A stretch of 64,000 nucleotides of DNA. Origin: Escherichia phage HMD-6. The stretch lies in the sequence record PQ505080.1; one strand, given 5' to 3'. Both the position numbers and the translations under genes were made by a program. The notes beneath the pieces are model-generated. The model searched no databases. It was not told where the DNA came from and saw only the letters and a list, made by a program, of their open reading frames with translations. Below, in pieces: positions 2,952-3,690 of this stretch. Numbering within the stretch: position 1 is the first letter of the stretch; the number at the start of each line of letters is the position of its first letter.

Positions 2952-3690
2952 CGTGCTGCTGCATGTCCCCATGCAGATCAGACTATATCTTCACACTTAG
3001 TGTGTCTACCATTTCGAGTGTCATCAGCTTACACCCTACACCGCTACATTCATCACGGTTAGTCGTTAGGCATTTCGTAACAGAACTCGTAATCATAGTT
3101 ATTAGGTGCACCACGTTTCAGGATAGCAGATATTCTTTTTCTATCTATTCCTAAAACATCAGCACAACATCTCAGACTCTTAAAGTGAATAACCACACCA
3201 GTTAATTTGTGGGTGGCTTTCACCCCGTGACATCTTGTGTAAAAAGCATAACAGTTGTTGTCGTATCCTTCTTGAGTATTGTCTGGGCAAGCTCCCCACT
3301 CAAGGTTGTATACGCTGTTATCTTTCCTGTTGTCACCTTTGTGCTTAACATATGGTAAATTGTCTGGATTTGGTAAAAACGCTTCAGCAACAAGTCTGTG
3401 AACCCTTAGGCAAACAGTCTTTTTGTTCTTGCGTATCCTGACAAGACGGTAACCTGTGTTTATCTCTTCCCACGAATGAATAATTCTTTCATTTTCGTAT
3501 CGGGTGCAATAAACATTGCCCATCTCGTCAATTTCATAACCTTCAAAATCACGAATTTGTTTTCTCATTTCAGGACTCCTCTTAGTCAGGAGTTCTGTTA
3601 CGTTTAGCACGGGATTGTCCGTTCTGGAGTTTCCCCGTTTAGATAGATTTTACATGAGCAGTTATAGTTTACCCATGCTTGTTACTTTGC
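2952..3690 (-). mobile_element. group I self-splicing intron in nrdD with HNH homing endonuclease ORF (boundaries approximate)
   Basis: On the minus-strand RNA: P-like AAACGGGGAAA (comp. 3630-3640), Q-like AATCCCGTGC (comp. 3607-3616), R-like TAACGACTAA (comp. 3059-3068), S-like AAGATATAGTC (comp. 2981-2991), P9-like hairpin CTGCATG-N4-CATGCAG (2959-2976); separates two NrdD ORFs. Confidence 0.8.
3059..3568 (-). CDS. HNH homing endonuclease (intron-encoded)
   Basis: Track ORF 3059..3610 starts with GTG inside the intron Q element; internal ATG at 3568 has AGAGGAG RBS. HNH-like motifs VKHKGDNRKDNSVYNLEWG and N-terminal GNVY-type module. Confidence 0.75.
   Translation of the reverse strand: MRKQIRDFEGYEIDEMGNVYCTRYENERIIHSWEEINTGYRLVRIRKNKKTVCLRVHRLVAEAFLPNPDNLPYVKHKGDNRKDNSVYNLEWGACPDNTQEGYDNNCYAFYTRCHGVKATHKLTGVVIHFKSLRCCADVLGIDRKRISAILKRGAPNNYDYEFCYEMPND

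Follow-up and report, generated by a model that had tools for sequence, protein, structure and literature searches.

A probable mobile T4-type group I intron encoding an I-HmuI-like HNH protein in nrdD of the rV5-like Escherichia phage HMD-6

The nrdD locus of HMD-6

Examining a stretch of 64,000 nucleotides (nt) from Escherichia phage HMD-6 (PQ505080.1; hereafter the window), we found that the minus-strand anaerobic-type gene nrdD is interrupted by a 762-nt insert (2909..3670) that has the anatomy of a group I intron and contains an open reading frame (ORF) for an HNH-family protein. Exon 1 (3671..4831, minus strand, 387 codons) encodes the ATP-cone (Pfam, 1e-13) and the N-terminal half of NrdD (NRDD, 1.3e-68, profile positions 1-263), and its final codons are AGC ATG GGT (S M G). 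Exon 2 (1946..2908, minus strand, 320 codons) opens with TGT AGA AGT TTC (C R S F), resumes the profile at positions 264-562 (NRDD, 1.5e-84), and encodes the glycyl-radical domain (Gly_radical, 2.7e-23) and a Zn ribbon. Exon 1 is collinear with the intron-less nrdD of phage ECP2303 as far as 3672, and alignment to that gene sets the intron boundaries at 3670 and 2909. Excising the intron joins ...SMG|CRSF... and restores an uninterrupted NrdD of 707 amino acids that is collinear with the ECP2303 protein; read unspliced, exon 1 meets a stop codon three codons into the insert.

A preliminary description of this DNA had seen the minus-strand nrdD as split by a T4-type intron with an internal HNH ORF, and both the restoration of the exons and the I-HmuI and PHROG matches of the ORF, given below, bear this out. 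Its span for the intron, 2952..3690, is corrected here to 2909..3670, since it took in 20 nt of exon 1 and left off the last 43 nt of the intron, which hold P9.1, P9.2, and the terminal G.

Exon 2 starts at the codon for the Cys of MGCRSFL, which aligns with Cys290 of T4 NrdD, reportedly the catalytic radical cysteine on the finger loop (Logan et al.). That conserved cysteine and a Met of the same loop are described in general terms elsewhere (PMC4493059). The locus lies in a minus-strand gene group of nrdA, nrdB, a glutaredoxin gene, nrdD, and nrdG, and the nrdD region is 98% identical to that of Escherichia phage EPFV3-03/2025, with further matches in other Vequintavirus (rV5/FV3-like) genomes. 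GenBank records annotate the pieces separately, with two NrdD coding sequences; the record of phage JEP1, for example, whose intron is 100% identical, carries the label “HNH homing endonuclease, Phage intron”. Where such phage records list two “NrdD” coding sequences and a “wHTH” or “hypothetical” ORF, the annotation would become one spliced nrdD and an intron-encoded HNH endonuclease. Our literature searches found descriptions of the terL introns of rV5 and no paper on the nrdD intron of these phages.

Ribozyme anatomy

The intron is of subgroup IA2 (T4 type) and runs on the minus strand from its 5' start, AAACUAUAAC, to its 3' end, ...GAACAUAAUG, with a terminal G. P1 (3652..3678) forms between the internal guide GCUCAUGU (3659..3652) and the eight bases that close the exon, GCAUGGGU (3678..3671), in eight canonical or wobble pairs, so that the last exon base, U, stands opposite G (U.G) at the 5' splice site, while the 3' end of the intron reads ...AAUG with the terminal G. 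The intron has no P2. The guide sequence of P1 recurs in the nrdD introns of T4, Mosigvirus, and Vibrio phage, and in the P1 of Felixounavirus SP116 an exon C>G change is compensated by a guide G>C change (GAUGGGU/GCUCAUC).

All on the minus strand, the 5' core (3607..3649) holds the P3 5' strand (3647..3642), P4 (ACGGGG/UCCCGU, 3638..3633/3614..3609), and the 3-base-pair stem of P5 (3628..3626/3620..3618), and within it fall the quoted motifs AAUCUAUCUAAACGGGGAA and AAUCCCGUGC; this 5' core is near-identical to that of the T4 td and T4-type nrdD introns. P6 pairs CGUAACAGAAC (3602..3592) with GUUCUGUUACG (3086..3076); its 3' strand, J6/7 (AAAUGCCUAAC), and the P7 5' strand GACUA together occupy 3060..3086. 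Between P7 (GACUA/UAGUC) and P3' are inserted P7.1 (ACCG/CGGU, 3059..3040) and P7.2 (GGGUGU/ACACUC, 3036..3016), a hallmark of IA2 introns. The segment 2981..3010 contains the 3' strand of P3 (UCUAUC/GGUAGA), P8 (CACAC-UAA-GUGUG), J8/7, and the P7 3' strand (AAGAUAUAGUC), and the 3' domain (2909..2976) is made up of P9 (CUGCAUG-GGGA-CAUGCAG, 2976..2959), P9.1 (GCAC/GUGC), P9.2 (GGUGG/CCACC), and the terminal ...AAUG. The four core motifs quoted in the preliminary description were all located on the minus strand, AATCTATCTAAACGGGGAA at 3649..3631, AATCCCGTGC at 3616..3607, AACGACTAA at 3067..3059, and AAGATATAGTC at 2991..2981. The 5' motif has its exact match in T4 td rather than in T4 nrdD (sunY), whose intron occupies another site.

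The helices were placed through homology with T4 td and T4 nrdD in a hand-curated table that covers six homologues. In it, all 12 helices stand at collinear positions with canonical pairs in the nrdD introns of phage AMO3598, Vibrio phage F89, T4, and Mosigvirus G2285 and in T4 td, and two-sided changes across the homologues are seen in P3, P5, P6, P7.1, P7.2, P8, P9.1, and P9.2. P3, for example, appears as UCUAUC/GGUAGA, CCGGUC/GGCCGG, and CAUCCU/GGGAUG, and P7.1 as ACCG/CGGU, GCUG/CAGC, and UCCC/GGGA, with GAAUAG/CUAUUC as a further compensatory variant in the P7.1/P7.2 insertions. Vibrio phage F89 has changed both strands of P6 (CAAAGUAUU/AAUACUUUG) and kept the pairing, and P9 covaries in Felixounavirus SP116.

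The endonuclease ORF

The loop of P6 accommodates the ORF (3059..3568, minus strand; ATG at 3568, TAA at 3061..3059), whose 169-amino-acid product resembles the homing endonuclease I-HmuI. The two proteins align end to end (residues 3-166 with 4-172 of PDB 1u3e, E 6e-8), and the ORF matches two HNH families, phrog_59 (E 4.5e-32) and phrog_959 (E 1.3e-25). In the alignment, the H, N, and N of I-HmuI correspond to the VKHKGDN His and to the Asn residues in NLEW and PDN. Between the HMD-6 ORF and its Phapecoctavirus orthologue we counted 57 synonymous and 20 non-synonymous differences; the ratio of non-synonymous to synonymous divergence (dN/dS) is 0.05 at a synonymous divergence (dS) of ~1.1, which indicates that strong purifying selection acts on the HNH protein.

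The ORF and the ribozyme share sequence at the end of the reading frame. The nine closing codons (F C Y E M P N D stop) also supply P6', J6/7, and the P7 5' strand, and the stop codon TAA at 3061..3059 lies inside the R element/P7, just as the preliminary description had placed the end of the ORF at the R element. At the other end of the frame, a hairpin, ACUCCU-N7-AGGAGU (3575..3593, minus strand), with a minimum free energy of -12.4 kcal/mol (z -3.9), takes up in its 3' strand the Shine-Dalgarno (SD) sequence of the ORF, 7 nt upstream of the AUG. Homologous hairpins of other sequence have z -4.1 in nepoznato and z -2.9 in Vibrio phage F89. Translational control by an SD-sequestering hairpin has been described for I-TevI and I-TevII as well as I-TevIII (PMC2988022), and the predicted hairpin of the HNH ORF would match this arrangement. 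A promoter scan of 2700..5200 returned none above shuffles, and the lone terminator-like site in the intron within that range was rejected as the reverse complement of the SD hairpin.

The ORF is missing from the nrdD intron of AMO3598 (1569..1625), which still has the HNH leader and 13 codons from the end of the frame (YDYEFCYEMPND stop), and therefore the ORF was lost by one internal deletion of ~480 nt that spared P6.

Distribution and exon flanks

The intron is polymorphic among close relatives. A match to the spliced junction was found in 118 Vequintavirus-type records, of which 100 are contiguous and about 17-18 interrupted (roughly 15% with the intron at this site). Next to the intron, the exon sequence is foreign to the intron-less Vequintavirus alleles: it differs from them at 20 positions over the initial 48 nt of exon 2 (2861..2908, minus strand), a one-codon indel included, and the last base of exon 1 (3671) is T where those alleles have A. 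Measured against intron-less ECP2303, the 50-nt bin at the junction holds 21 differences, compared with 0-9 per 50 nt in the other bins of the gene. The patch is common to all intron-plus Vequintaviruses examined, and this intron-type flank was found in no intron-less Vequintavirus record, so that these records give no sign of precise intron loss. In a search for the donor, Phapecoctavirus matched only the first 14 nt of the patch.

We read the 48-nt patch as a co-conversion tract that probably came in with the intron. Since the patch is one-sided, lying in exon 2 bar one base, it suggests a cut downstream of the insertion site. Across phage subfamilies, the intron also resembles its relatives more closely than its host gene does: identity to Phapecoctavirus is 85-94% for the intron and 91% for the HNH protein, as against 64-69% for NrdD. 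Felixounavirus SP116 and Vibrio phage F89 have a related intron with a homologous HNH protein (~50% identity) at the same site, in NrdD proteins only 26-36% identical to that of HMD-6. A patchy distribution combined with a co-conversion-like patch speaks for recent homing.

Some Vequintaviruses have an intron elsewhere in nrdD. In JEP1 (1222..2018), FV3, and phita32, a third nrdD site is occupied, after HMD-6 residue 287 (SVNG|QTPF), by an intron with its own HNH ORF (phrog_59). JEP1 holds both nrdD introns; FV3 has only the one after residue 287 and is contiguous at the HMD-6 site. With that of T4 included, three phage nrdD intron sites lie within ~110 codons.

In the same comparisons, ~18-25 records named “Campylobacter phage” (MG0656xx, host Campylobacter jejuni) are 93-97% identical to Escherichia coli Vequintaviruses across nrdD and terL. 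Most of them are unannotated, and their Campylobacter host assignment looks doubtful.

Alternative readings

Several observations weigh against a self-splicing and mobile intron. On the side of the enzyme, the Pfam matches of the ORF to HNH_3 (20 bits, cut-off 24.8) and to PF22083, the I-HmuI NUMOD-like family (18.5 bits, cut-off 27), are both below threshold. Moreover, Lys precedes the catalytic His in the HMD-6 ORF where I-HmuI has Asp and other homologues have C or N; the Asp of I-HmuI is a metal-ion ligand, and therefore the activity of the HMD-6 HNH protein is not assured. On the side of the ribozyme, the helices were listed by hand, and a MAFFT alignment of the ORF-excised cores misplaced P7.1, P7.2, and P8 of td and T4 nrdD and was too poor for automatic pair counts. 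In addition, an E-value scan of 2800..3800 with Rfam RF00028 matched only the 3' half of the HMD-6 nrdD intron (2959..3193, E 2e-6), and its 32.9 bits are under the gathering cut-off of 50 bits; in a gathering scan of the whole window, the terL intron described below is the sole group I match. The full RF00028 model is left unmatched because the ~500-nt ORF separates the 5' half of the nrdD intron from the 3' half. The natural ORF-less orthologue at the same nrdD site in AMO3598, whose core is 89-94% identical, scores 70.4 bits.

The observations on the enzyme would fit an intron that splices but no longer moves, its HNH protein being inactive or retained as, for example, a maturase or repressor. 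The Lys in place of Asp ahead of the catalytic His, the sub-threshold Pfam scores, and the precedent of a defective I-TevIII in T4 itself speak for such an element. We nevertheless consider it improbable, since the ORF has a dN/dS of 0.05 over a dS of ~1.1 and keeps the catalytic His and both Asn of the H-N-N motif, the residue ahead of the His varies among homologues (K, C, N), and the patchy distribution and co-conversion-like patch suggest recent homing.

We give still less credence to a split gene that is not spliced at all, in which an endonuclease cassette with a decayed ribozyme would leave NrdD as two assembling polypeptides, as is reported of Aeh1 nrdA/mobE. HNH inserts without splicing are documented (PMC7344957), and such an arrangement would account for the two NrdD coding sequences in GenBank records, for the stop codon three codons into the insert, and for an in-frame GTG at 2938 that starts a 330-residue ORF spanning exon 2. 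However, every helix of the ribozyme is intact and held by compensatory change across four phage groups, and the ORF-less orthologue is above the Rfam threshold. The break would separate the Gly of the finger loop from its radical Cys, and the GTG at 2938 lies inside P9.2, with no Shine-Dalgarno sequence seen upstream when the sequence is read. The preferred interpretation is a spliced nrdD carrying a mobile intron.

The terL intron

The window contains a second group I intron, in the plus-strand gene terL (30819..31136, 318 nt, no ORF; RF00028, 81.4 bits). With boundaries set against the intron-less terL of FV3, it lies between ...CFDEG and TQFEW..., and its flanking exons (30393..30818 and 31137..32258, plus strand) encode Terminase_6N and Terminase_6C, respectively. 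The insertion site directly follows the C-F-D-E-G codons (30818/30819), which resemble a Walker B motif in the terminase ATPase. The terL gene of rV5 is split into three segments by introns, one of them with a homing endonuclease, in a publication that makes no mention of an intron in nrdD (Kropinski et al. 2013, PMC3606486). The HMD-6 terL intron is of the same published kind, but single and ORF-less.

The preliminary description had drawn attention to the P9 hairpin shared by the two introns, taken their cores to match nearly, and concluded that an intron had recently spread or lost its endonuclease. The hairpin itself, CTGCATGGGGACATGCAG at 2976..2959, has a second copy in the terL intron at 31070..31087, and the window contains no others, against 0.33 matches expected by chance; and we regard the hairpin as homologous rather than coincidental. 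The alignment of both introns that had been proposed as a check revealed a wider similarity in the 3' tail but no close match of the cores. BLAST aligns only the 3'-terminal 81 nt (75% identity), and by segments the introns are 34% identical from the 5' end to P4', 61% from J6/7 to P9, and 73% from the S element to the 3' end, farther apart than any other two of the nine T4-type introns compared. Both stand nearer to introns of T4 than to each other: the nrdD intron has 71-94% identity with nrdD introns from other phages, T4 included, and the terL intron is nearest to T4 nrdB (74%) and T4 td (80%) in the respective segments. Two related introns, one of them without an ORF, are thus present in one genome in the sense of a common family, and the close kinship claimed for them finds no support.

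Sequence comparison beyond HMD-6 leads to the same conclusion about the hairpin. The P9 hairpin, CUGCAUGG-N-GACAUGCAG, is also found in T4 td, nrdB, and nrdD, and the S+P9 motif occurs in at least 120 IMG/VR viral contigs; it is a hallmark of the family and therefore lends no support to recent spread within the genome, on which it would be silent. Among the matches listed, 24-28 of 110 unique IMG/VR introns are closer in the 3' tail to either HMD-6 intron than the pair are to each other, and the same is true of 78-88 of the 110 in the P7.1-P8 region (90 nt upstream of the tail). In structure, a long P5 extension and a different P4-P6 set the terL intron apart from the nrdD intron, and the guides differ (GCUCAUGU in nrdD, GCUCUC in terL). 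As to loss of an endonuclease, the terL intron of sister phages carries in P8 an EndoVII-like ORF that is 16% identical and unrelated to the nrdD HNH protein, and HMD-6 has a different, short P8 with no remnant of that ORF. Such a loss can be demonstrated only for the nrdD intron of AMO3598 and is not established for the HMD-6 terL intron.

On these grounds we regard the terL intron as an independent member of the same broad family and not a recent copy. The notion that the two introns are recent copies within the genome, by spread or by recent loss of an endonuclease, retains next to no probability: although both are T4-type IA2 introns inserted after GGU, with identical P9 stems and a last 81 nt that is 75% identical, it is opposed by the low identity at the 5' end (34%) and in the core (61%), by the terL P5 extension and P4-P6, by the differing guides, by the greater nearness of each intron to those of T4, by an unremarkable place of the pair among the 110 listed family members, by a hairpin present in at least 120 viral contigs, and by the unrelated EndoVII-like ORF of the sister introns.

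Two further features were noted around terL. In the sister phage MaxBurger (935..1528), the EndoVII-like ORF of the terL intron starts in the 5' strand of P8 and stops at the UAG of the S element (..AAG AUA UAG UC), a second case of an intron ORF that runs into the ribozyme core. In HMD-6, six tRNA genes are clustered at 28477..29286 on the plus strand, ~1.5 kb upstream of the spanin gene and terL; two of them have weak scores (35.5 and 29.9 bits).

Discussion

Taking all lines of evidence together, we hold with high confidence that nrdD of this rV5-like phage contains a mobile, self-splicing T4-type (IA2) group I intron with an I-HmuI-like HNH endonuclease in P6 and that the terL intron is independent of it. 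It is a real, well-formed intron and very probably an active mobile element of a thoroughly studied kind. The sequences show its anatomy, the restoration of the exons, the presence/absence polymorphism, the foreign patch, and selection on the ORF. Splicing itself, as well as the cleavage activity and specificity of the enzyme, is what we infer from the features described above.

The closest parallels are with T4 and its relatives. The T4 nrdD (sunY) intron lies in the same host gene, has 73-83% identity to the HMD-6 intron in two core segments, and likewise does without P2; it and its Mosigvirus relative share with HMD-6 the guide GCUCAUG, the P7.1 loop, and P9. However, the T4 intron is 1033 nt long and interrupts codon 180 (AYE|YEV), whereas that of HMD-6 lies ~110 codons downstream, between the equivalents of G289 and C290, and the T4 intron encodes the GIY-YIG enzyme I-TevII in P9.1 in place of an HNH protein in P6. 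The T4 td intron, home of I-TevI, is identical to HMD-6 in the quoted 5' core (AAUCUAUCUAAACGGGGAA...AAUCCCGUGC), has its ORF in P6, and ends in GAACAUAAUG. It differs in having P2, a GIY-YIG enzyme that stops before J6/7, and thymidylate synthase as its host gene.

For the endonuclease, the T4/RB3 nrdB intron with I-TevIII offers an HNH-family enzyme in the P6 loop together with an SD hairpin (PMC2988022). The similarity extends to the frame, which enters the R element through ..AAC GAC UAG/UAA (Asn-Asp-stop), the T4 protein ending in ...F N D stop, but the host gene is different and the 5' half of the ribozyme is just 53% identical to that of HMD-6. I-TevIII carries a zinc finger and has a different HNH architecture, and the HMD-6 protein aligns over its whole length with I-HmuI. 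I-HmuI of Bacillus phage SPO1 (PDB 1U3E) is the best solved relative, sharing the N-terminal NUMOD4-like beta motif, the H-N-N motif, and a C-terminal helix-turn-helix; it differs in overall sequence (~30% identity), in the Asp before the catalytic His, which is Lys in HMD-6, and in its residence in a DNA-polymerase intron. I-HmuI is a nicking enzyme.

These comparisons suggest the following course of events. The intron would be transcribed inside the nrdD message, where the guide GCUCAUGU would pair with the exon end GCAUGGGU to form P1, and the core from P3 to P8, with P7.1/P7.2 and P9-P9.2, would fold so that a free guanosine could attack after the U. The terminal G would set the 3' splice site, and exon ligation would restore the Gly-Cys of the finger loop with its radical cysteine. 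Meanwhile, the ribosome-binding site of the HNH ORF would be kept in its hairpin. As the last HNH codons are also P6', J6/7, and P7 and the SD sequence lies in a hairpin, translation of the ORF should therefore compete with folding of the ribozyme. In a mixed infection, the HNH protein may cut or nick an intron-less nrdD near the insertion site, and repair off the intron-carrying genome would copy the intron along with ~48 nt of the downstream exon.

The likeness between the HMD-6 and T4 introns at different sites raises a broader question. The 5' exons at the two nrdD sites are similar, AUGAGU in T4 and AUGGGU in HMD-6, and the guide GCUCAUG is present at both (3652..3659 in HMD-6, compared with T4 and Mosigvirus G2285). 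The shared core, guide, P7.1 loop, and P9 at differing sites therefore suggest one ribozyme lineage at two nrdD sites, with two unrelated endonucleases. That a single lineage was relocated between the two sites is a tentative proposal that we rate below even chances. Under it, the intron could have made a guide-directed move, with reverse splicing at a site that matches as one conceivable route, and the introns would then have captured their homing endonucleases independently.

The HMD-6 intron changes no concept of group I intron biology, yet it is a textbook-style case, with an intron at a catalytic cysteine codon, a visible co-conversion patch, and an ORF that overlaps the ribozyme core. 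If the C-F-D-E-G of TerL is indeed Walker B, both introns of this phage would sit at catalytic-site codons, both after GGU. Moreover, sequenced phages offer natural ORF-plus, ORF-deleted, and intron-less nrdD alleles that are easily crossed. The wider lead is that of one ribozyme lineage at two nrdD sites with the same guide; if true, this relocation would illustrate in a natural setting how introns of phages come to occupy new sites.

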